A stretch of 37,622 nt of DNA from a virus. The notes beneath the pieces are model-generated. The model saw only the letters and a list, made by a program, of their open reading frames with translations. It was not told the DNA's origin and ran no database searches. The DNA lies in UHGV virus genome UHGV-0369712, one strand, 5' to 3'. Shown in pieces: positions 6,108 through 33,570 of the stretch (position 1 is its first letter; every line of letters begins with the position of its first letter). The position numbers were made by a program, and so were the translations under genes.

Positions 6108-6497
6108 ATGATTGACGCTCATGACTTCACAAGATGGGTGCGCACACAGGACACCCGTCTGGCTCCCGTTCTTCAGGGATTATTTGATCTCTACATCCGT
6201 GGTCGTGACAACAGAGCACGCACCACAAAACCGGAGAATGCAGACACCCTTTATTTCACAGTAGACGACTGCTACCGCGTGGACTTCACACCACACGGGC
6301 TGGCGTTGCACTGCCTGACACCACACGGAGAATCACTGCTGGCGTATTACGACTCCCCGGCCTCCGTATTTGCGGCAATGCTGGCGCATCGCACTGCTGG
6401 CGGGTGTGCCTCGCTGAGTGAATACACCGCTGAATTTAACCGCCTTTCTGCCCTGTTCTCGCAGGAGTGGCAGCGCGTGACGGGATACCAGCCATGA
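6108..6497 (+). CDS. hypothetical protein upstream of the replicase
   Basis: 129-aa ORF; stop overlaps the A start (ATGA at 6494). Confidence 0.5.
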   Translation: MIDAHDFTRWVRTQDTRLAPVLQGLFDLYIRGRDNRARTTKPENADTLYFTVDDCYRVDFTPHGLALHCLTPHGESLLAYYDSPASVFAAMLAHRTAGGCASLSEYTAEFNRLSALFSQEWQRVTGYQP

Positions 6498-9277
6498 ATG
6501 AGTTTGCATGGAGCTGGAATGAACCACGGCCAGCCATTGATCCGGCCAGATTTACGGAGCACAGGCAGGAAACTGAAACCGACCTGCAACGCGCCATCCG
6601 TTACTACCTTGAGGCAGACAAAAAGGCTCTGGAAGAACAGGAAGCGAAGGAGGAAGCCTTTTTCGCACAATCCACCGTGGGTAAAAAACTCATGGCATCC
6701 CTTGAGGAAGCCGGACAGCGTGAAAAGCTGGCACAAAGCATCATCAGCAAGCGTCAGGCAACAGAACAAGACCCGGTGGCCCGTGCTTTTGCCACACTGA
6801 AGGTGCTTCCCGTTTATCTGCGTGAACCTCTGAGCCGCCACCTCTCTTTCCTGCGCAAAAAACAGGAAGCCGATCGCCAGAAAGGCAAAAAGAGCTGGCA
6901 GGCTGAACGCTACGCGCGCGGAACCCTGCGCAAAATATTCGAACGTCTGGACCGCACCGATCACCGCTGGCTGACACCGGGTTATCGCTCCCTTGCCGGA
7001 CGCGAACGCCTGGACGATTTGCTTTACCTGCCGCAGCTCAACAAACACCAGATACAGACGCTGGCCACCATGACGGCGGCGATGTTCAGCAGCACCTTCG
7101 AAAAACTCTGCGATGGCTTTGGCGCGACTGATGGCGAACTGACCATGGATGTAACGCTGAAGGCGTATCAGATGCTGGCCCGCATGGCGTTACACCTGCA
7201 CGCCATGCCTCCACATTATGACGCACTGACAACAGACAAAGACCGGAGGAACGAACCGGACACGGAGCTGCTGCCGGGCGCAATCCTTCGCTTGACCTGT
7301 GCGGAATGGTGGAAACGCAAACTGTGGCTGTTACGTTGTGAGTGGCGGGAAGAACAACTCCGCGCCGCCTGTCTGATTTCCAGAAAAACATCCCCCTATC
7401 TGAGCCAGGACGCGTTAAGCGAGTTTCGCGCACAGCGCGAGAAAACACGCGATTTCCTGAAAAGTTTCATGCTGGAAAATGAAGACGGGTTCACGATTGA
7501 TCTCGAGACGGTGTATTACGCGGGAGTAAGTAACCCGGTTCACCGTAAGGCAGAAATGATGGCCACCATGAAGGGACTGGAACTTCTGGCCGAAGCCCGT
7601 GGCGACAGAGCGGTGTTTCTGACCGTCACCTGCCCGTCAAAATACCACGCAACAACGGAGAACGGTCATCCGAACCCCAAATGGAACGGGGCCACCATGC
7701 GCGACTCCAGCGATTACCTGGTTAACACGTTTTTTGCGGCGGTCCGCAAAAAACTGAACCGCGACGGCCTGCGCTGGTATGGCATCCGCACGGTGGAGCC
7801 TCACCATGACGGCACTGTGCACTGGCATATGATGGTCTTTGCACATCCGGACGAGATTGAAACCATCGTGTCCCACGTCTGCGATATTGCCATTCAGGAG
7901 GACCGCCACGAGCTGGGCGATGACATAACTCCGCGTTTTAAGGCGGAGTATGTCGACGGCTCAAAAGGCACACCAACCAGCTACATCGCCACCTACATCG
8001 GAAAGAACCTGGACAGCCGCGCCGTGGATGGCATCGACCCGAAAACGGGCAAGCCACGCGTTGACCACGAAACCGGAAAATCAATGGCCGAGAGCGTGGA
8101 GCGCGCCATCGGCTGGGCGCGCCTTCACCGGGTCCGTCAGTTCCAGTTCTTTGGCATCCCCTCCCGTCAGGTGTGGCGTGAACTGCGCCGCCTTGCCAGC
8201 CAGATGGCACGCAATCCGGAAGGCCCGCAACGGCTGAAAGATGATGCAATGGATGCGGTACTCGCTGCCGCCGATGCCGGGTGTTTTGCCACCTACATTG
8301 AAAAACAGGGTGGCGTACTTGTTCCACGCAAAGACTACCTGATTCGCACCGCCTACGACCTCGCAGATGAGCTGAACGATTACGGCGAACAGAGCGTACA
8401 GATTTACGGGATCTGGTCGCCACTCATCGGGGAATCCTCCCGTGTGTGCACGCATCCGGATAACTGGAAGCTGGTAAGACGTAAACCGGAAACGGAAGAC
8501 AGCGCCCGCGAAAATGGTTTTGACCTTCAGGGCGGCCCTGCCGCCCCTTGGACTCGTGGCAATAACTGTCCCCGTGTACAGGAAACGGACAACAACGGGA
8601 CAGAACAGCAGGAAGAACGGCCAGCACTGTGGCCGCAGCTTCCTGACGGCGTTGATGTGGATGAATGGATGCGCTCACTGAAACGGCACGAACGCCGGGC
8701 GCTGATGCGTTCGCTTCGTGACAAACAGGCAAAAAACAGCAGTGATGAAATGCAGAGCTGGACACAGAGCCGCAAACAGCAGCGGCCTTTGCCTGATAAC
8801 CACGAATTACTCGCTAAAGAATGGCGGGAATCTGCCGAATCTCTCGGCCTGCATATCGGTGAACAGCAGATGCAGCACCTGTTACGAGGCGGCAGTCTGT
8901 ACGTTGACGGCAGCATCATTGCACCGCAGGGATTTGAAATTGTACGCAAACCAGATACCCGACCGGACAGCCGAATCACGCAGCTCTGGCAGCGCCTGAG
9001 CCGTAATCACGGCGTAAACAGCACGGAAATCCGCCATAACCCGATTTCCAGCTATCTGAAACAGCTCGGGGCATCAGACCCTGAAGCCGCTGCACGCCTG
9101 GCATCCACAATTCAGCAGGACCAGAACACCATGAAAACTCCCGTTACCGTGCTTTCTGACATGCTGCGCGCCATCCGTGACGCAGAGCACGCACAGAGAA
9201 TCAATGAAACCACTGAACGCGCACGTCACAAGGCGGGTCTGTTGCAGGACAAAGGCAATAGCGAGAAGAAAAAATAA
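6494..9277 (+). CDS. A: rolling-circle replication initiator (P2 gpA-like HUH endonuclease) with a long C-terminal extension
   Basis: About 930 aa; HUH-type motif VHWHMMVFAH and tyrosine pair SYIATYIGK as in P2/186 A; ATG 6494 preferred over GTG 6467 because of the ATGA coupling; last ~250 aa are low-complexity and R/Q/E-rich. Confidence 0.8.
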   Translation: MNEFAWSWNEPRPAIDPARFTEHRQETETDLQRAIRYYLEADKKALEEQEAKEEAFFAQSTVGKKLMASLEEAGQREKLAQSIISKRQATEQDPVARAFATLKVLPVYLREPLSRHLSFLRKKQEADRQKGKKSWQAERYARGTLRKIFERLDRTDHRWLTPGYRSLAGRERLDDLLYLPQLNKHQIQTLATMTAAMFSSTFEKLCDGFGATDGELTMDVTLKAYQMLARMALHLHAMPPHYDALTTDKDRRNEPDTELLPGAILRLTCAEWWKRKLWLLRCEWREEQLRAACLISRKTSPYLSQDALSEFRAQREKTRDFLKSFMLENEDGFTIDLETVYYAGVSNPVHRKAEMMATMKGLELLAEARGDRAVFLTVTCPSKYHATTENGHPNPKWNGATMRDSSDYLVNTFFAAVRKKLNRDGLRWYGIRTVEPHHDGTVHWHMMVFAHPDEIETIVSHVCDIAIQEDRHELGDDITPRFKAEYVDGSKGTPTSYIATYIGKNLDSRAVDGIDPKTGKPRVDHETGKSMAESVERAIGWARLHRVRQFQFFGIPSRQVWRELRRLASQMARNPEGPQRLKDDAMDAVLAAADAGCFATYIEKQGGVLVPRKDYLIRTAYDLADELNDYGEQSVQIYGIWSPLIGESSRVCTHPDNWKLVRRKPETEDSARENGFDLQGGPAAPWTRGNNCPRVQETDNNGTEQQEERPALWPQLPDGVDVDEWMRSLKRHERRALMRSLRDKQAKNSSDEMQSWTQSRKQQRPLPDNHELLAKEWRESAESLGLHIGEQQMQHLLRGGSLYVDGSIIAPQGFEIVRKPDTRPDSRITQLWQRLSRNHGVNSTEIRHNPISSYLKQLGASDPEAAARLASTIQQDQNTMKTPVTVLSDMLRAIRDAEHAQRINETTERARHKAGLLQDKGNSEKKK

Positions 9278-9457: not shown

Positions 9458-10579
9458 ATGGGCGACTTAGGTGGTATTCAGTCAGATTTAGCCCAACTAG
9501 TTAGACTGGTAATAACTGAACAGTATGATGACGTTCGGTTATATGTCGCTCGCTTGGTGCGTAAATATCGGGAAACTATGCCTGCTCTATCCGAGCAGCT
9601 TGATCTTTATCTACGAAATAAACCGCAAAAGCCTGCACAAAGCCTGCGTAAGGTTACCGCACCAAAACAAGCGCTGCCTCAAACCATGCCTGTGGACGAG
9701 GAGTCAAGGCTTACCTTGCTTAAAGCACCAAATGAAAAGATTGTGAGCAAACCTCTACTGTCCAGTCAGATAGAAGACTCACTGGATCAAATTATTCTTG
9801 AGCGGAAGCACATCGATCGCCTCAAGACTCTCGGCTTACAACCAACACGCTCTGCCATTTTTGTTGGCCCTCCGGGTGTAGGTAAAACACTTACGGCAAG
9901 CTGGTTAGCTCAGAAATTAGGGGTTCCTTTTTACGTTCTTGATTTAACGGCAGTAATGAGCAGCTATCTGGGCAAAAGCGGAAATAACCTTCGGGCAGCT
10001 TTAGATTTTGCGAAGAAAGGGCCGTGCGTTCTTCTGTTAGATGAAATTGATTCAATCGCCAAAAAGAGAAGTGATGATTCTGATGTTGGAGAATTAAAAA
10101 GACTTGTTACCGTGATACTCCAGGAGGTTGACGAATGGCCGTCTTCTAGTTTGCTACTTGCTGCAACTAACTTCGCTGAGTTGATTGATCCAGCACTATG
10201 GAGACGTTTTGATTTAGTGCTCAATTTTGAGAAGCCAGATAGCGAAAGTATTAAAGAAGCAATTAAACGCTTTTCAGGTCCCGACTACGCGATTTTTGCA
10301 CGTTGGATAGATCTACTGGCTATTATGTTCAAAAATGAATCTTTTAGTAATATTGAGCGTTCTATCAACAAATTCCGACGTTCGGTCGCTTTAGGTATTT
10401 CCTCAGATGAAGAGTTGATTGGGTCGTTCATTAAAGATGGTTTATCAGAATTAGACAGGAATGAACGTAAAGAAATTGCAGTTACTCTAAAAAGAAATTC
10501 TAAATTATCCCAGCATGCCATATCAGACTTAACCGGAGTCAGTAGGGATACAATTAGAAAATACAGTCAAAAAATGTAA
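9458..10579 (+). CDS. AAA+ ATPase (classical AAA clade), IetA-like candidate defence ATPase
   Basis: 373 aa; Walker A GPPGVGKT, Walker B VLLLDEID, sensor-1 ATN, arginine-finger region WRRFD; C-terminal HTH-like tail; AT-rich gene in the slot between A and the cos/Q region. Confidence 0.8.
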   Translation: MGDLGGIQSDLAQLVRLVITEQYDDVRLYVARLVRKYRETMPALSEQLDLYLRNKPQKPAQSLRKVTAPKQALPQTMPVDEESRLTLLKAPNEKIVSKPLLSSQIEDSLDQIILERKHIDRLKTLGLQPTRSAIFVGPPGVGKTLTASWLAQKLGVPFYVLDLTAVMSSYLGKSGNNLRAALDFAKKGPCVLLLDEIDSIAKKRSDDSDVGELKRLVTVILQEVDEWPSSSLLLAATNFAELIDPALWRRFDLVLNFEKPDSESIKEAIKRFSGPDYAIFARWIDLLAIMFKNESFSNIERSINKFRRSVALGISSDEELIGSFIKDGLSELDRNERKEIAVTLKRNSKLSQHAISDLTGVSRDTIRKYSQKM

Positions 10580-10602
10580 TACAGCATAGATAAGGAGTAT
10601 GT

Positions 10603-12828
10603 ATGGCGAAAACTAATTTTCTGATTGGACGCGGCGAATTATTAACCAGCGATATTCCTGGTCCTAAAAGAGTGCCCGGAAAAGCTGAGGTTTATTCTCT
10701 TTACGAATCGAAACAACGTTTATTGCCGCAAATTGCATCTACTATAGAAAATTTTGATGATTTACCCAGTCAGGCATGTCCTTATGATTATGCTGTGGCT
10801 AAGTTGACGTTGAATCCGAGCTATATTGCACGCTCTTTTTTTCCTGCAAAAATGCTTAAGTCTACCGGGTTAACGTCTATTGGCAGCAGGACGGTAAAAA
10901 TTACGCCTCAAAGCTGGAAGCGAAAAGTTACTGTGTCAGAAGTAACTACGACACAAATGTTTGTTGCTGGTAAAAGAGAATCCTTCAAAGAGTTACCTCA
11001 TTGGGTGTCAGGACTCAAAGAGTTTTCTGACGAAGCGATTGATTTTGCACGCATAGAACGGTTCGATGCCTATTTACCCGAAGAGCGTATTATTACCATT
11101 GGTGAGCAGGATTCTTCGTATTTTGAGGTTGGTGTTCATTTACTGCCAGATAATGAACAAGACTTGGTTCAGCAACAATTTGTTCAGTTTGCATCAAATT
11201 TGAACATCAAAGTACATACTTCATTAGCTTTTACCGCTGGTACATTATGGTTCGTGCCAATCCAGGCCGATAGAATTACTATTAGTAAGCTTGCGAAATT
11301 TACATTTGTACGAGTAATAAGACCGGTTCCAAGATTGCGTGGGATTAGACCAATACAAAGGAACTACGGTCCTTTAGCTCAGTGTAAATTGCCTGCTGAG
11401 GGCCCCGTATCTTCAGAAATAAAAGTTGCGATTCTTGATGGCGGTTTACCATCAGAGCACGCTATATCGCCATGGTTAAAATCCTATAGAGTTTTGGACG
11501 ATCATGCAGAGGATGATCCAGACGGTTTAGAGCATGGTTTAGCTGTGTCTTCAGCCTTTTTATTTGGACCAATAAGTAATAAATCGGAAGCGAAAAGACC
11601 ATACTCTTATATTGATAACTTAAGAGTTTTGGACAACAAGACCTGCCAAGAAGATCCGCTGGAACTATATCGAACTTTGGGCTTTATTGAAGAGGTATTG
11701 TTGTCTCGCCAGTATCAGTTTATCAATCTAAGTTTAGGTCCAGACCTACCAATTGAAGATACGGAAGTTCATGCATGGACTTCCGTTATTGATGATTTGT
11801 TAAGTGATGGTGAAACATTAATGACTGTTGCTGTTGGCAACAATGGAGAAATGGATCGCAAGTCTGGTAATGCAAGAATTCAAGTACCAGCCGATTGCGT
11901 TAATGCTCTTGCTGTTGGTGCTTGTGATACAGTTAATGATACGGAATGGAAACGAGCACCATATAGCGCCATTGGGCCAGGCAGAAGTCCTGGCGTGATG
12001 AAACCGGATTTAGTTGCGTTTGGTGGTGACACAGACGAGTACTTTCATGTCTTAGGTAAAGGTAAGAAGCCTGTAATCATACCCCAGCTAGGAACAAGCT
12101 TTGCCTCTCCTTACGCCTTACGAGCAGCTGTTGGTGTTCGGGCAATTTTAGGGAACGATTTGAGCCTACTAGCAATCAAAGCTTTGTTAATTCATGCGTC
12201 AAAACAGCTTGATCATCCTTGTATAGAAGTTGGCTGGGGAAAACTTCCTGAAGACTTGAACGACATTATAGTCAGCCCTGATGGTGTTGCCCGTATCGTC
12301 TACCAAGGTGAATTGAAACCAGGAAAATACTTACGCGCTCCTCTTCCAATACCTGAAGGTGGCTTGAAAGGTAGAATAAACTTAGCGGCAACTTTCTGTT
12401 ATGCAACAACCACTGATCCACAAGACCCAGCTTCCTATACAAAAGCTGGTTTGGAAGTGACATTCCGGCCAAATGATTCAAAAATCAAAGACGGAAAACA
12501 AAATGCTGAAACCAAGGGATTCTTTGAACTGGCCAAATATTCAACTGAAAGTGAGCGACGTTCTGACATGGGCAAATGGGAGACCGTCTTACATAATTCG
12601 AAGAACATGCTAGGTTCAACTCTAAAAAATCCTGTATTTGACATTCATTATAACGCTCGTGAGGCCGGTGCAAGCATAGCCAGCCATAAGGCAGAAAAAA
12701 TCAAGTATGCTCTTATAATTACCATTAAGGCATCAAAGCACCAAGACCTGTATAACGAAATTTTACGTACTTATAATCAGGTGCTCGTGCCAATTCAACC
12801 GCAAACATCAATTCCTATTCGTTCGTAA
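10603..12828 (+). CDS. subtilisin-like serine peptidase (S8 family), IetS-like
   Basis: 741 aa; catalytic triad motifs in order D (VAILDGG), H (LEHGLAVSS), S (GTSFASP), plus oxyanion AVGNNGE; 23 bp downstream of the ATPase with its own RBS. Confidence 0.8.
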   Translation: MAKTNFLIGRGELLTSDIPGPKRVPGKAEVYSLYESKQRLLPQIASTIENFDDLPSQACPYDYAVAKLTLNPSYIARSFFPAKMLKSTGLTSIGSRTVKITPQSWKRKVTVSEVTTTQMFVAGKRESFKELPHWVSGLKEFSDEAIDFARIERFDAYLPEERIITIGEQDSSYFEVGVHLLPDNEQDLVQQQFVQFASNLNIKVHTSLAFTAGTLWFVPIQADRITISKLAKFTFVRVIRPVPRLRGIRPIQRNYGPLAQCKLPAEGPVSSEIKVAILDGGLPSEHAISPWLKSYRVLDDHAEDDPDGLEHGLAVSSAFLFGPISNKSEAKRPYSYIDNLRVLDNKTCQEDPLELYRTLGFIEEVLLSRQYQFINLSLGPDLPIEDTEVHAWTSVIDDLLSDGETLMTVAVGNNGEMDRKSGNARIQVPADCVNALAVGACDTVNDTEWKRAPYSAIGPGRSPGVMKPDLVAFGGDTDEYFHVLGKGKKPVIIPQLGTSFASPYALRAAVGVRAILGNDLSLLAIKALLIHASKQLDHPCIEVGWGKLPEDLNDIIVSPDGVARIVYQGELKPGKYLRAPLPIPEGGLKGRINLAATFCYATTTDPQDPASYTKAGLEVTFRPNDSKIKDGKQNAETKGFFELAKYSTESERRSDMGKWETVLHNSKNMLGSTLKNPVFDIHYNAREAGASIASHKAEKIKYALIITIKASKHQDLYNEILRTYNQVLVPIQPQTSIPIRS

Positions 12829-12842
12829 TCCTTCAAGACATA

Positions 12843-12872
12843 ATGCCCCTCAATTTGAGGGGCATTTCTTTG
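12843..12872 (+). terminator. rho-independent terminator after the ATPase/protease cassette
   Basis: ATGCCCCTCAATTTGAGGGGCAT hairpin followed by a T-rich tract, immediately after the S8 stop. Confidence 0.65.
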
Positions 12873-12897
12873 CACAAAAGTGCACAAATTTGCACAA
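12871..12897. repeat. three direct TGCACAA repeats at exact 10-bp phasing (candidate protein-binding array near the presumed cos/packaging region)
   Basis: TGCACAAAAG TGCACAAATT TGCACAATTT at 12871, 12881 and 12891; lies in the non-coding region between the cassette and Q. Confidence 0.4.
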
Positions 12898-13320
12898 TTT
12901 TTTTGAACGACTTTTTGCCCTTCCGGCCCGCATGGCGGCTGGATCGGTCAAGGATCCGTGCGTGCACAAAAAAACGCGCTTTTTCTGCGCGCAGGTGACG
13001 GGGGAACAGCCCGCGTTTCAGGGGGTAAATAGCATTCCCTGAACGATGTCGCAGAGATACAACAGAATGGCTGTATTTCTCACGCTGAGCGTGAAAAAGA
13101 CGTGAGGGCTTTTGATTTATGGGGTGAAAGGTAAGGCCGTCAAAATCGCACTGAGACGGCGAGAACATGCAGTCAACGCGGTGGGATTGCGTAAGAGTCT
13201 GACTGTCGATGGTGGCGATAAACTGGAAGGCGTCGTGAAATTATCTGACTGATACAGGAGCTGGAGAGTCGGGGCATAAATTTTTTATGCCCCGGCGAAG
13301 CAGCAGACAAGCGAAGCGCG

Positions 13321-14367
13321 TCAGGATGTGGGCTGGGTGTCTAACAGTGCGTAAGGGTTAAAGCGGATCACCTCTTCGCCAAGCCAGTCATTGATGTGCT
13401 TCATGGCCTCCATGACAGGCATCAGCTCGTTAATTGCGTAAACCCGCGCGGCCTTCTCCACATCACCAAACGCACTTTTTTCGCCCGGCATCGCCCCCAT
13501 CAGTTGCGGCGGAACGCGGTGCGCAGCCAGCACATCATCACGGGATGCCGCCTTAACATTCATGAACTCATCCTTTGCGGTGATCTGCTGGAACGGCAAA
13601 ATTTGCACCCCCTCTTTGCCCCCGTTGGGAGCATGGATGAGCACGTTTTTAAACGCACCACCACCACGCGCACCCTGTAACGTTTCTTTCAGGGAGCCCA
13701 TGCTTTCGCGGTTTACCTGCGCTGCACCAATGTAGATGATGCACCCGGCGTGGGAGCCGTTGTCGTAGTACAGTTTTCTGAACATGTCCGCCGAATGAGA
13801 AAGGCTGGCCGAGAGTAATGCGCCAAGATATTCCGGCATGCCGTAGATTTCCTGATTAATATCCGGATTCATCAGATGGCACACTTTACCAGGGCGAAAC
13901 TCAAACGCGTCCTTGCCATCCTGCACATACCACCATGATTCAAGATCGCTTCCGCGTCGCATGTATTTCGCCAGTGCGTGCCGTAATTTAAGCGGTTCGC
14001 CGAGCATATTGCTTCGAAGCTCAAGGAATGCGTTACCGAACACAAACCAGTCCAGCGCCAGCGCCGAGAAATCCTGCCGGGAAAGCAGCGGGTGCGGGAT
14101 GTAGCAACCGAGCAATACATTGCGCTTAAAGTAAAGCGCAGACTGATGCCAGGACGTTTGCCGGGCGGCTCTTGCCAGACCGTACCAGTCCACCGGGGTT
14201 TCGTACCACCGCCCGTTATCAGCACAGTACATATTGTCCAGCAGGTCATGCCCGGTCAGGCGGTAAGGACCATCAAATGTGAATGCACTGAGCGACGATT
14301 CTTTCCTGAGCGCATCAGCAAGCTCAATGCGTGTACTCATGCGCACTTTTTTATTTTTTCTGCTCAT
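13321..14367 (-). CDS. Q: portal protein (P2 gpQ-like)
   Basis: 348 aa, about the size of P2 Q (344 aa) and at the Q position; start overlaps the P stop (ATGA), giving a P-Q operon as in P2. Confidence 0.85.
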   Translation of the reverse strand: MSRKNKKVRMSTRIELADALRKESSLSAFTFDGPYRLTGHDLLDNMYCADNGRWYETPVDWYGLARAARQTSWHQSALYFKRNVLLGCYIPHPLLSRQDFSALALDWFVFGNAFLELRSNMLGEPLKLRHALAKYMRRGSDLESWWYVQDGKDAFEFRPGKVCHLMNPDINQEIYGMPEYLGALLSASLSHSADMFRKLYYDNGSHAGCIIYIGAAQVNRESMGSLKETLQGARGGGAFKNVLIHAPNGGKEGVQILPFQQITAKDEFMNVKAASRDDVLAAHRVPPQLMGAMPGEKSAFGDVEKAARVYAINELMPVMEAMKHINDWLGEEVIRFNPYALLDTQPTS

Positions 14368-16118
14368 CAGAACTCCATAACCGTGAAACGCTCGTTTTCT
14401 CCTTCGCCGCCAATCGGTTCGTTAATGACAGCAAGCATGGTTGCCCACGCAAGGTCGCCGTGGCTGATCCCCCTCGCGCGGTCCGTTTCGTAAGTGATAA
14501 AGCCGCCCGGTGTTTTCACCTTACGCACGGCGTTAAAGGCTGCGACCAGCTCGCGTTCAGCGCGATCGTATTCCCACCGCCCGGCGCGCATTATTTGCAG
14601 CATTTTCAGTACCAGCGACCGTTTTGATGACAGCGTGAAGGTGTACGGAATAGCAGCAGGGAAAAACCGTTTCACTATCTGATAAACAGCCTCCCCGTTC
14701 CCGCCTGTCACATCAATGCCGATGTGTTCCACGTTGTAGCGACACGTGAACTCTTCAATGACTCTGGCCTGTTCTTCAAACTCCAGCCCCTGAACGCGTC
14801 GCGTCTCCACCGTTCGAAAACGGCCACCAGGAACAGCCGGAGGAACCACCACGGACACAGCGCCGCTGTCGCCGTTGCCACTGCTGCCGTTTGCGTCATA
14901 CCCAATCCATACCGGACGATTCCCCATCGGGCGGGGAGCAAAAGGTTTCCAGTCCTTCCAGTCGTCGTATCCGTCAACACCGCAGCCAATCAGGATATTC
15001 AGGTTAAATGCCGATTCCCCTTCGCGGACAAACTCACACATATAGAGATTGAGGAACTCGTCTTCGGTGTTTTCATCACGAATTTCGTCAATATCGGTGT
15101 GTTTCCAGCCGTGATTAACCACATCTTCCAGCGTGACAATCTGCCGCCACGTCCGGTCAGGGCAGATAAGCCCGTTATGCAGCGTTTTCCAGTCCACAGA
15201 AAAACGCTGGCGTTTATGCGTGGCCTTTTTCTCGTTCCAGCGGTCGCCATTCCAGTAGGCGTATGCCTCGTGCGTTTCGGTGGATGGCGTGGAGAAGTAG
15301 GTGCGCCGCAGTCCGCTGAGGGTTGCCATAGCGCCAGCCACCTTGCGCAGTTCAGCAAAGCGACTGACCCAGAAAAATTCATCAAAATAAAAATTGCCCG
15401 TATAGGACTGCGCCGACGCAGCAGAAGTGCCGAGAAAATGCAGCTCTGCGCCGTTGGAGAGGATGATTTTATCGCCCCCTTTCAGCTCCACATCAACTTC
15501 AGCCGCGGCCTTCTGAATAATGCTTTTAAACTGGAACGCCTGACGACGCGACGCAGACAAAAAAATCTGGTTACGCTGGTAAGGTTGCGCCACATCGTCA
15601 CGCAGCGCCATCAGCAGTGCTTCCTGTGCAAAATACCAGGTCGCCCCAATCTGTCGGGATTTCAGGATCATCCTGTTACGTATCCCGGCTTCCCTGCAAA
15701 GGGTCAGGGAGTCAAACCAGCCCCGCTGATGCCACTCCAGCCTGCTGATGATTTTTTCCCGCAGTGCGGCAATCTGTTCCGGCGTGAAATGATTTTTGAG
15801 TTTTTTCGCCCGGCCTTTCTTTCCTGCGGCCATCACATCCGGCTGGCCATCATGCAGCTTTTTAAGCTGCCGGGTCAGCAGGTCTATTTCCTTAAAGTCA
15901 CCGCCTGTTTTATTCTGTTTTTCAGTAAGCTGGATGAGGCGCGCATCGATGGACTGCGTGACACGCTGCACGGGTGGCGTTTCATCCCACTGGTCGCGTT
16001 TTTTCCACGCATAAATCGTGTTCGGGTTTATTCCCATCAGACGTGATATTTCTGCGGGCGGATAACCCTGCCAGTAAAGTTGCCGCGCACGCTGGCGCAC
16101 AAAAGCGTCCTGAATCAT
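14367..16118 (-). CDS. P: terminase large (ATPase) subunit (P2 gpP-like)
   Basis: 583 aa; P2 P is ~590 aa; N-terminal HTH-like segment; divergent from O as in P2. Confidence 0.85.
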   Translation of the reverse strand: MIQDAFVRQRARQLYWQGYPPAEISRLMGINPNTIYAWKKRDQWDETPPVQRVTQSIDARLIQLTEKQNKTGGDFKEIDLLTRQLKKLHDGQPDVMAAGKKGRAKKLKNHFTPEQIAALREKIISRLEWHQRGWFDSLTLCREAGIRNRMILKSRQIGATWYFAQEALLMALRDDVAQPYQRNQIFLSASRRQAFQFKSIIQKAAAEVDVELKGGDKIILSNGAELHFLGTSAASAQSYTGNFYFDEFFWVSRFAELRKVAGAMATLSGLRRTYFSTPSTETHEAYAYWNGDRWNEKKATHKRQRFSVDWKTLHNGLICPDRTWRQIVTLEDVVNHGWKHTDIDEIRDENTEDEFLNLYMCEFVREGESAFNLNILIGCGVDGYDDWKDWKPFAPRPMGNRPVWIGYDANGSSGNGDSGAVSVVVPPAVPGGRFRTVETRRVQGLEFEEQARVIEEFTCRYNVEHIGIDVTGGNGEAVYQIVKRFFPAAIPYTFTLSSKRSLVLKMLQIMRAGRWEYDRAERELVAAFNAVRKVKTPGGFITYETDRARGISHGDLAWATMLAVINEPIGGEGENERFTVMEF

Positions 16119-18230: not shown

Positions 18231-19031
18231 ATGATTACTCCTGCACAGCAACACTGGCAGAACGTGATGGCACAGCGAGCAGGCCGGGCGAATGAAGGCG
18301 TGGACCACGCCGCGCGTACCGCACATGAAGAGGTACTGTATCGTCTGCGTCTGGCACAGGCCCGGCTTAAGGGCGTACAGGCCAGAAGCGCGAAAGCCGC
18401 CATCAAAAAAGAGTTGTTGCCGGACTTTTCCGGCTGGATTGAGGGAACGCTGGAGGCTGACGGCGGACAGCAGGATGAAGTGATTGCCACGCTGATGGTG
18501 TGGGCGATTGACTGCGGCGATCTTCCGCTTGCGCTGCGTATTGGCGCGTATGTGGTCCGTCATAACCTCATCATGCCGGATAACTTTGGCCGTACTGCTG
18601 CCACAGTGCTGACCGAAGAAATCTGCAACCCGGTGCTGACGCAGGCCGGGACGGATGCCGACGCGGATTTGTCCGCCTTTATCGAACCACTGGACATCCT
18701 CCGGGAGATTGTCACAGACCAGGATATGCCGGACGAAGTACGCGCCAAATTATGCAAGGCGTGCGCCTTTGCCCGTCGTGGTCTGACCGATGCAGACAAC
18801 ATGGCCTTATCACTGAAGCTGCTGCGCGAAGCGATGCACCTGAACCCGAACGCAGGTGTGAAACGCGAGATTGCAACCCTTTCCCGCGCCCTGAAAAAAG
18901 CCGATTCCGCAGCCGCACCAGAAGACGCCAGCGCACAGCAGGCGCAGGACGAAAGCAGCAAAAGTAAAAAGACAACGCGGAAGCCTGCAACACGAAAAAC
19001 CACCGCGACGCAGAAGGCGAAGCGCGGTTAA
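18231..19031 (+). CDS. M: terminase small/endonuclease subunit (P2 gpM-like)
   Basis: 266 aa at the M position; Lys/Thr-rich basic C-terminus. Confidence 0.8.
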   Translation: MITPAQQHWQNVMAQRAGRANEGVDHAARTAHEEVLYRLRLAQARLKGVQARSAKAAIKKELLPDFSGWIEGTLEADGGQQDEVIATLMVWAIDCGDLPLALRIGAYVVRHNLIMPDNFGRTAATVLTEEICNPVLTQAGTDADADLSAFIEPLDILREIVTDQDMPDEVRAKLCKACAFARRGLTDADNMALSLKLLREAMHLNPNAGVKREIATLSRALKKADSAAAPEDASAQQAQDESSKSKKTTRKPATRKTTATQKAKRG

Positions 19032-33057: not shown

Positions 33058-33570
33058 TCAGCCAAGCCCGAGCGCGGAACGGATGCGATCGGGCACAATG
33101 TCCTTGCCGTCCTTCCGGTAAATGAAGTTCAGCAGGTCAATCTCCCACAACGGGCGATCGTTAACACTCAGCTTGTAGTAGGTGTTTTTAATGGCGTAAG
33201 TGTGTGATGTGGCTTCGCCCTGTTTGGCTTCCCCCATATCAATTTCCGTCACACGTCCGCGCATTTCGACTTCATACAGGTCGCTTTCTGCATCGGTGTA
33301 GTATTCACCCGCAAAACGCAGCAGCGTGCCGTCAATCGTGCCGCCATACTTAAGGAACAGCTCACGAACTGCGCCCCCCATGACAAAGCTCGCATCAAGC
33401 GCGGAGTCGTCCAGACCGAGATCAATACTTACCGCACCCATCATGCCACCACCCCGGTAGCTGTCGGTTTTGCGCGTCAGCTTAGGCAGAGTGACGGACG
33501 TCACCTTACCCACTTCGTTTTCACCATCCACAAACAGCGTAAAAAAGCGAAGATGTTTTGGTACAGCCAT
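33058..33570 (-). CDS. FII: tail tube protein (P2 gpFII-like)
   Basis: 170 aa; VTLPKLTRK...YRG.GM.G...DLGLDD and RFAG.Y resemble P2 FII. Confidence 0.9.
   Translation of the reverse strand: MAVPKHLRFFTLFVDGENEVGKVTSVTLPKLTRKTDSYRGGGMMGAVSIDLGLDDSALDASFVMGGAVRELFLKYGGTIDGTLLRFAGEYYTDAESDLYEVEMRGRVTEIDMGEAKQGEATSHTYAIKNTYYKLSVNDRPLWEIDLLNFIYRKDGKDIVPDRIRSALGLG

Follow-up and report, generated by a model that had tools for sequence, protein, structure and literature searches.

In a P88-like prophage of the P2 family, a triplet of TGCACAA repeats next to the portal gene Q most probably forms the distal half of the packaging signal cos, and comparison with related phages suggests that the terminase reads this signal. 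The triplet lies in a viral DNA stretch of 37,622 nucleotides (UHGV-0369712), called the window here. With 100% identity to Escherichia coli C7 (NZ_CP010240.1), the window represents a prophage of that strain, of the P88-like group (Xuanwuvirus, Peduoviridae). What was observed directly is how the sequence is laid out, that this layout is conserved and that it occurs together with P2-type terminase genes. An earlier, sequence-only reading had presumed that the repeats belong to a cos region. This placement was supported by homology to relatives that starts at the first repeat, by a 19-mer at the cos position of P2 and 186, by corresponding triplets in P2, 186 and P4, and by the presence of the module in satellite-like elements.

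The box array and its surroundings

The features of the region are given below, in coordinates of the window.

6467-9277: gpA-type replication gene
9458-12828: IetA/IetS defence pair (IetA, AAA ATPase of 373 aa; IetS, subtilase of 741 aa)
12842-12870, + strand: intrinsic terminator of the cassette, a perfect 12-nt inverted repeat with a T-rich tail; left edge of the module
12871-12877, + strand: box 1, TGCACAA; varies more between lineages than the other boxes (TGCACGA, TGCAAAA and others)
12881-12887, + strand: box 2, TGCACAA; GTGC invariant in the alignment of P2, 186, P4 and the window
12891-12897, + strand: box 3, TGCACAA; 72 bp upstream of box 4 and better conserved than boxes 1 and 2; TTGCA invariant
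12905-12962, + strand: spacer, conserved in length and variable in sequence; mean information 0.56 bit
12963-12974, + strand: box 4 (proximal), TGCACAA with an A tract (12970-12974); counterpart of TGCATTAAAA in P2, 186 and P4
12974-12992, no strand assigned: short GC-rich inverted repeat between box 4 and the 19-mer; found in P2, 186, P4 and P88-like phages
12994-13012, + strand: candidate 19-nt cohesive end (cosN equivalent), GGTGACGGGGGAACAGCCC; nick positions placed by homology
13013-13032, + strand: right flank GCGTTTCAGGGGGTAAAT, still common to satellite elements; right edge of the common module
13321-14367, - strand: portal gene Q (PF04860)
14367-16118, - strand: large terminase gpP, with an N-terminal helix-turn-helix (HTH) at residues 6-63 (nt 15930-16103)
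18231-19031, + strand: small terminase gpM (PF05944), the other candidate for reading the boxes

The three TGCACAA copies at 12871-12877, 12881-12887 and 12891-12897 lie on the + strand with exactly 10 bp from start to start, as the sequence-only reading had stated. It was also right that the triplet begins directly behind the cassette terminator: the T-tail of the hairpin ends one base before it. Its count of three repeats holds for the triplet itself, but the array has a fourth copy in the same orientation (12963-12969, + strand), which it had overlooked. A T7 tract (12898-12904) follows box 3 directly, and the spacer holds a partly conserved, GC-rich imperfect palindrome, CCGGCCCGCATGGCGGCTGG (12923-12942). 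The hairpin between box 4 and the 19-mer was rejected as a universal element; several lineages are without it.

We counted all TGCACAA copies across the window and found 8, where 9.5 were expected. There is no overall over-representation, and this would agree with a chance clustering of an AT-rich 7-mer. However, 4 of the 8 copies fall within 12871-12969, so that the repeat is clustered rather than enriched. No 7-mer appeared three times at period 10 in any of 2000 first-order Markov simulations of the window (0/2000), and the array is conserved across genera. Both results refute chance, whose probability we regard as negligible.

On the left side, the stop codon of the 741-aa ORF is at 12828 and the hairpin comes next. 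The hairpin (12842-12866) is clear on folding, with -19.4 kcal/mol and z = -4.9, though it was not among the results of the terminator scan. PADLOC recognised the IetA and IetS pair with E-values of 1e-77 and 1e-51. Rousset et al. (PMC9122126) described the cos-proximal locus of P2-like phages as a hotspot of gene exchange, and the IetAS locus of the window is this hotspot. Enterobacter phage phiT5282H carries a similar two-gene cassette before cos, with products annotated as FtsH and a 734-aa hypothetical protein.

The distance from the cassette stop to the Q stop (13321) is 492 bp. In this intergenic region before Q, the promoter scan found no sigma-70-like promoter, and no Rfam family scored above threshold. 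The module (12871-13032) stands between the replication and accessory-gene region and the divergently read Q-P operon, as the cos site of the P2 family does. The gpP of the window has the Terminase_5 HTH, ATPase and nuclease; it is P2-type and occurs alongside the PF05944 gpM. Two ORFs overlapping the module (12833-13168, - strand; 12843-12998, + strand) were judged spurious, because conservation tracks the box pattern and stops at the satellite boundary. The remaining ~290 bp up to Q (13033-13320) are conserved only among P88-like phages and have no Rfam match; the terminator hairpin of Q is at 13270-13294. The annotation of P88 places two small hypothetical ORFs between the cos module and Q.

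Conservation of the module in phages, prophages and satellite-like elements

Among 5426 complete E. coli genomes, 1146 matched the intergenic region, as did 18 phage records. Nearly all of these matches begin at window position 12864-12871, that is, at box 1 and right after the variable cassette. In phiT5282H (Novemvirus) the match is limited to 12864-13015 with 73% identity. Its distal boxes, TGCACGA/TGCACAA/TGCACAA, are spaced 10 bp apart, and it has the fourth box and the same 19-mer as the window; the intervening sequence differs. The triplet was present in all P88-like loci with enough flank. In six P88-like loci (L027, L036-L040) it lies ~1050 bp from the end of Q instead of ~430 bp, so that ~600 bp of extra DNA have been inserted between cos and Q.

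We then considered 80 IMG/VR loci, which were fetched via the portal protein and anchored on the G-rich sequence. Boxes 1-3 carried 0.58, 0.67 and 0.89 bit of information and box 4 carried 0.94 bit, against 0.10 bit in the left flank and 0.56 bit in the spacer; the 7 nt ahead of the putative cut reached 1.81 bit and the 19-mer 1.40 bit. A set of 34 lineages, less than 70% identical over the repeats and spacer, was used for the distances. Upstream of the proximal box, a GCA core was present at a distance of 71-73 bp in 32 of the 34; for 80-83 bp the count was 29 and for 90-95 bp it was 28, against a background of 0.39 per distance. The typical layout has TGCA-type boxes 72, 82 and 92 bp upstream of the proximal box. 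From the proximal box to the 19-mer there are 31 bp in the GGTGAC type and 29 bp in the GGCGAGG type.

Scanning 185,579 species genomes for boxes 2, 3 and 4 gave 58 matches, ~37 of them in Enterobacterales. The 72-bp distance holds in all but one of the Enterobacterales matches, and a cos-like 19-mer follows at +29/+31 in nearly all of them; the matches outside this order are unrelated and have no cos-like sequence. The sequence-only reading had made its claim depend in part on conservation of the repeats among related prophages, and the boxes are indeed conserved. TGCACAA arrays with roughly 10-11-bp spacing also occur in Bryobacterales MAGs (L100, L103, L105, L116, L124, L136); these loci have neither a cos-like sequence nor P2-type genes and are unrelated to the cos array. 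In Thiolinea disciformis (L134), a TGCACAA triplet and a proximal box stand beside a P2-family capsid homologue, followed by a different G-rich sequence. From this locus, the box layout may extend to P2-like phages outside Enterobacterales.

The candidate cohesive end GGTGACGGGGGAACAGCCC starts 31 bp after the start of box 4, directly behind a near-invariant GCGCGCA. It is identical to the P2 cohesive end at 13/19 positions in the same register; the mapped ends used for comparison were GGCGAGGCGGGGAAAGCAC (P2) and GGCGTGGCGGGGAAAGCAT (186). Related phages have the intermediate 19-mers GGCGAGGCGGGGGAGCAAG and GGTGACGGGGGGCAAGCCC in the same place behind GCGCGCA, and GGTGACGGGGGAACAGCCC itself is identical in phiT5282H and many Enterobacterales prophages. 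The experimentally determined end of phage phiRSA1 begins GGTGAGGCGGGG, like the 19-mer of the window (PMC5694545). These comparisons support the G-rich sequence that the sequence-only reading had picked as its nearest candidate; its coordinates are 12994-13012 and not about 12990-13008. Among the phage records searched, we found no TGCACAA-class genome deposited from its cohesive ends. Mapped virion ends were found for no TGCACAA-class phage in the collections searched, so the cut site of the window is placed by homology.

Two records vary at this place. The start of LR595891 (window 12916) was rejected as a physical end, since this record is a circular permutation broken inside the spacer; it ends with the TGCACAA triplet. 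Its 19-mer region (P88_4B11; L002 1-120) reads GGTGACGGGGGGACAGG-TTTCAGG, ~5 nt shorter than in the window and other relatives; either the 3' part of the cohesive end really varies or cos was misassembled in this record. In L074 (IMGVR_UViG_2938772992_000001), the GGCGAGGCGGGG class accounts for the sequence to the left of the 19-mer and for the first 12 nt of the 19-mer; the remainder, GGGGGGCAAGCCCCC..., belongs to another class. Judged by these two parts, L074 is a recombinant with a crossover inside cos, and it accords with cohesive ends promoting exchange at the hotspot.

The alignment with the cos regions of P2 and 186, which the sequence-only reading had proposed as a check, gave the same box layout, with the 19-mer at the annotated cos position. 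The annotated cohesive ends of P2, 186 and P4 are all preceded by this layout, in TGCAT boxes. In P2 (locus L005) the boxes start at 653, 665, 675 and 747, and cos is at 776. The successive spacings are 12, 10, 72 and 29 in P2 and 13, 10, 72 and 29 in 186 and P4. In a six-way alignment of P2, 186, P4, the window, a satellite and another prophage, GTGC of box 2, TTGCA of box 3, TGCA..AAAA of box 4 and G.G.GC were invariant.

The homology of P2 and P4 has been reported to be limited to a 55-bp cos core (PMC9594776). The proximal box of P2, 186 and P4, 29 bp upstream of cos, is near enough to fall inside this core. The distal triplet lies outside it, and this counts against a role in packaging. 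However, the retention of the distal triplet in P4 is informative precisely because the reported P2-P4 homology is the 55-bp core only. In P2, three TGCAT boxes (L005 625-679, equal to 33424-33478 of the P2 record) are 28-54 bp upstream of the annotated old-tin transcript starts. These starts are on the strand opposite to the boxes, and the boxes overlap the -35 region; thus, box conservation in P2 could have a second cause.

We also found the module in satellite-like elements. The match in E. coli mip270_22 (L011/L152; NZ_CM132655.1, ~2727100-2739900) is an island of ~12.5 kb between hpt and gcd. It encodes two integrases, an Icd-like gene, an HTH regulator, a toprim primase, an Ogr/Delta zinc finger, an unknown 236-aa protein and its own P2-family major capsid protein (PF05125); no portal or terminase genes were found in the island. 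TGCACAA occurs there three times, with the fourth box 72 bp on and then GGTGACGGGGGAACAGCAC. The homology to the window extends only from box 1 to ~20 bp past the 19-mer (~160 bp). Among the Enterobacterales matches, relatives of this island were found in Kluyvera, Erwinia dacicola, Apirhabdus, Izhakiella and a 12.7-kb contig; their proteins are 28-60% identical to those of the island and their cos module is the same. In Izhakiella australiensis, one genome contains both a prophage (L137) and a satellite-like element (L133). Because these terminase-borrowing elements keep exactly the ~160 bp, they are the strongest available evidence that the whole module, including the triplet, is a packaging signal. 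For the module being sufficient in cis for packaging by a P2-type terminase, their support is indirect.

The loci of this island family (L011/L152, L140, L095, L099, L111, L118/L128, L133) carry a complete TGCACAA cos module. The contig QAKE01000006.1 (12,723 bp; L118, L128) has two cos modules ~12.2 kb apart, as expected if a satellite genome of unit length and P4-like size had been assembled with terminal redundancy. Its label as a Bacillota MAG is probably a binning error, and an adapter-like sequence at its end, inside the 19-mer, was judged uninterpretable. A survey of P4-like satellites does not mention capsid genes, and the capsid-encoding islands of ~12.5 kb may be an undescribed satellite type.

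The repeats could also have no packaging role and be a regulatory element of the cassette, such as a terminator, operator or promoter, or merely a conserved homology arm for cassette exchange. They abut the cassette terminator, the locus is a known gene-exchange hotspot beside cos (PMC9122126), and the TGCAT boxes of P2 are just upstream of the old-tin transcript starts. However, there is no promoter-like site, and the cassette is read in the direction of the boxes rather than starting at them. If the repeats were a passive homology arm, the boxes and the 71-73-bp distance (mostly 72) would not be kept with a spacer less than 70% identical, nor would the repeats persist in satellites with unrelated neighbour genes or in P4. 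We therefore consider this explanation very improbable.

Proposed mechanism and candidate readers of the boxes

From the layout we infer protein binding, DNA bending and a cut site in the module. The signal would comprise ~160 bp (12871-13032), with three direct boxes one helical turn apart, a fixed-length spacer, a fourth box and the 19-mer. Boxes 3 and 4 have the same orientation and are 72 bp, or about seven turns, apart. The sequence-reading part of the terminase, that is, the N-terminal HTH of gpP and/or gpM, would bind the four boxes. The fixed-length spacer would be bent or wrapped, with the distal and proximal boxes in one complex. This complex would position the gpP nuclease on the 19-mer, where the staggered cut would be made. 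The box sequence (TGCACAA or TGCAT) would set packaging specificity and, with it, the range of satellites that a helper packages. A single nucleoprotein complex is suggested by the four direct boxes, three of which lie on one helix face, and by the spacer, whose length but not sequence is conserved. Since box 1 is degenerate in many lineages, perhaps not all three distal boxes are required.

The boxes may instead belong to cos and act late, holding the right chromosome end or ending packaging, like lambda cosQ. Relative to the cut, the array is on the side from which the right end of the mature chromosome is formed, and the terminase genes are not on this side. In lambda, the docking site cosB sits on the opposite side of the nick. 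Roles in initiation and termination are, moreover, inseparable by sequence data. However, the proximal box is near enough to the cut for the 55-bp P2-P4 core. The P2-type terminase is reported to act on circular monomers (Bowden and Modrich 1985, as cited in PMC7552001). Both sides of the cut would then be in cis, and a separate termination signal would be less needed. A late role is thus unlikely in our view, though we give it more weight than a cassette element.

Which terminase subunit reads the boxes was explored by comparing the phages of the TGCACAA class. The N-terminal HTH of gpP belongs to PF06056/HTH_23, and the 186 record also notes a putative HTH in its gpP homologue. The AF2 model of gpP residues 1-80 has helices at 2-16, 21-28 and 32-42, with pLDDT ~90 over 11-40. 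In the region of helix 3, all TGCACAA-class phages compared share GIN.NT[IV]Y[AS]WK except L090, which has VSANTIYSWR; P2 and 186 have Q[MV]KRPTVQSWK. Identity to the window in this class, L090 excepted, is 79-89% for the gpP HTH and 65-78% for the rest of gpP, and the first 60 residues of gpM in the class are 48-61% identical. As the gpP HTH is more conserved than both the rest of gpP and the gpM N-terminus, gpP is favoured as the reader. L090 keeps the TGCACAA boxes with a gpP HTH identity of just 47%. With two box classes, one outlier and little statistical power, the case for the gpP N-terminal HTH as box reader is only suggestive, and the comparison points to this HTH at least as much as to gpM.

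The sequence-only reading had proposed either the terminase or a host factor as the binding protein. The comparison supports the first of these, whereas a host factor is unlikely because phages of one host, E. coli, use two box classes. Bending of cos DNA by an architectural protein of the host, such as IHF, HU or Fis, would suit the one-turn phasing, the A/T tracts (12898-12904, 12970-12974) and the fixed spacer, which fit a bent nucleoprotein complex, and lambda cosB employs IHF. However, the IHF consensus WATCAANNNNTTR had no match with at most 1 mismatch in 12829-13320. Furthermore, TGCAT (P2, 186, P4) and TGCACAA (P88-like) occur in E. coli each with matching satellites, which argues for a phage-encoded reader. 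We rate binding by a host protein as quite improbable, and reading by the terminase is preferred here.

A broader reading is put forward tentatively, as a possibility about which we are doubtful. The 3+1 array with its 72-bp spacing might be a family-wide packaging code of Peduoviridae read by the HTH of the large terminase, in which box classes would define helper-satellite groups, one of them with the apparently undescribed, capsid-encoding satellites of ~12 kb. If this were true, these satellites would encode their own P2-type capsid and borrow portal, terminase and tail.

Significance and comparison with known cos sites

About one in five complete E. coli genomes contains a P2-like prophage with this cos type, and the site beside cos is a major reservoir for defence systems. 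A true signal extent of ~160 bp, beyond the 55-bp core, would fix the exact right-hand border of the defence hotspot, predict the satellites mobilisable by each helper and provide a design rule for P2/P4-based transducing particles. Transduction efficiency has been reported to rise with longer cos flanks (PMC9594776). The cos descriptions in PMC9122126, PMC9594776 and PMC5694545 cover just the 19-nt ends and the 55-bp core. We did not find the TGCACAA class, the 72-bp rule or the sharing with capsid-encoding satellites in the searchable literature, where a text search for the motif returned primers only. The array offers a simple hypothesis for DNA recognition by P2-type terminases, of which no account was found in searchable papers. 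Ziermann and Calendar are said to have defined the P2 and P4 cos sites in 1990, and the conserved 55-bp core is credited to them; the TGCAT triplet of P2 may already have been noted in that paper. A cos signal is an ordinary kind of element; its architecture here is tidy and possibly undescribed.

The window agrees with the cos sites of P2, 186 and P4 in its place between the cos-proximal accessory-gene hotspot and the portal gene Q, in the G-rich 19-mer, and in the proximal TGCA box, A-rich tract and short GC hairpin before the cut. Both also have three distal TGCA boxes, the third of them exactly 72 bp before the proximal box, and P2-type gpP and gpM terminase genes. The differences concern the box sequence (TGCACAA in the window, TGCAT(T/G) in P2/186/P4), the distal spacing (10 and 10 against 12-13 and 10), the distance from the proximal box to the 19-mer (31 bp against 29 bp) and that from cos to Q (~300 bp against ~170 bp). 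The gpP HTH of the window is 39% identical to that of P2. The ends of P2 and 186 are mapped, whereas the end of the window is assigned by homology. The cos of Ralstonia phage phiRSA1, GGTGAGGCGGGGTCCAAC, whose ends are experimental, starts with GGTGA and has a CGGGG core like the candidate of the window, although its host clade is different (PMC5694545).

The window and lambda share a general plan, that of several short repeats by the nicking site with proposed terminase specificity and implied bending. In lambda cosB, the sites R3-I1-R2-R1 are bound by the winged-helix domain of the small terminase gpNu1, with an IHF site between the repeats. However, there is no sequence similarity between the two, the boxes of the window are all direct repeats, the IHF consensus is absent from the window region, and, seen from the terminase genes, the array and cosB lie on different sides of the nick. 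In lambda the small subunit reads the sites, while in the window an HTH on the large subunit may do so. By analogy, the signal of the window would work like lambda cosB without being of that family; by position, 19-mer, core and terminase genes, sequence comparison identifies the module as a member of the P2-family cos sites.
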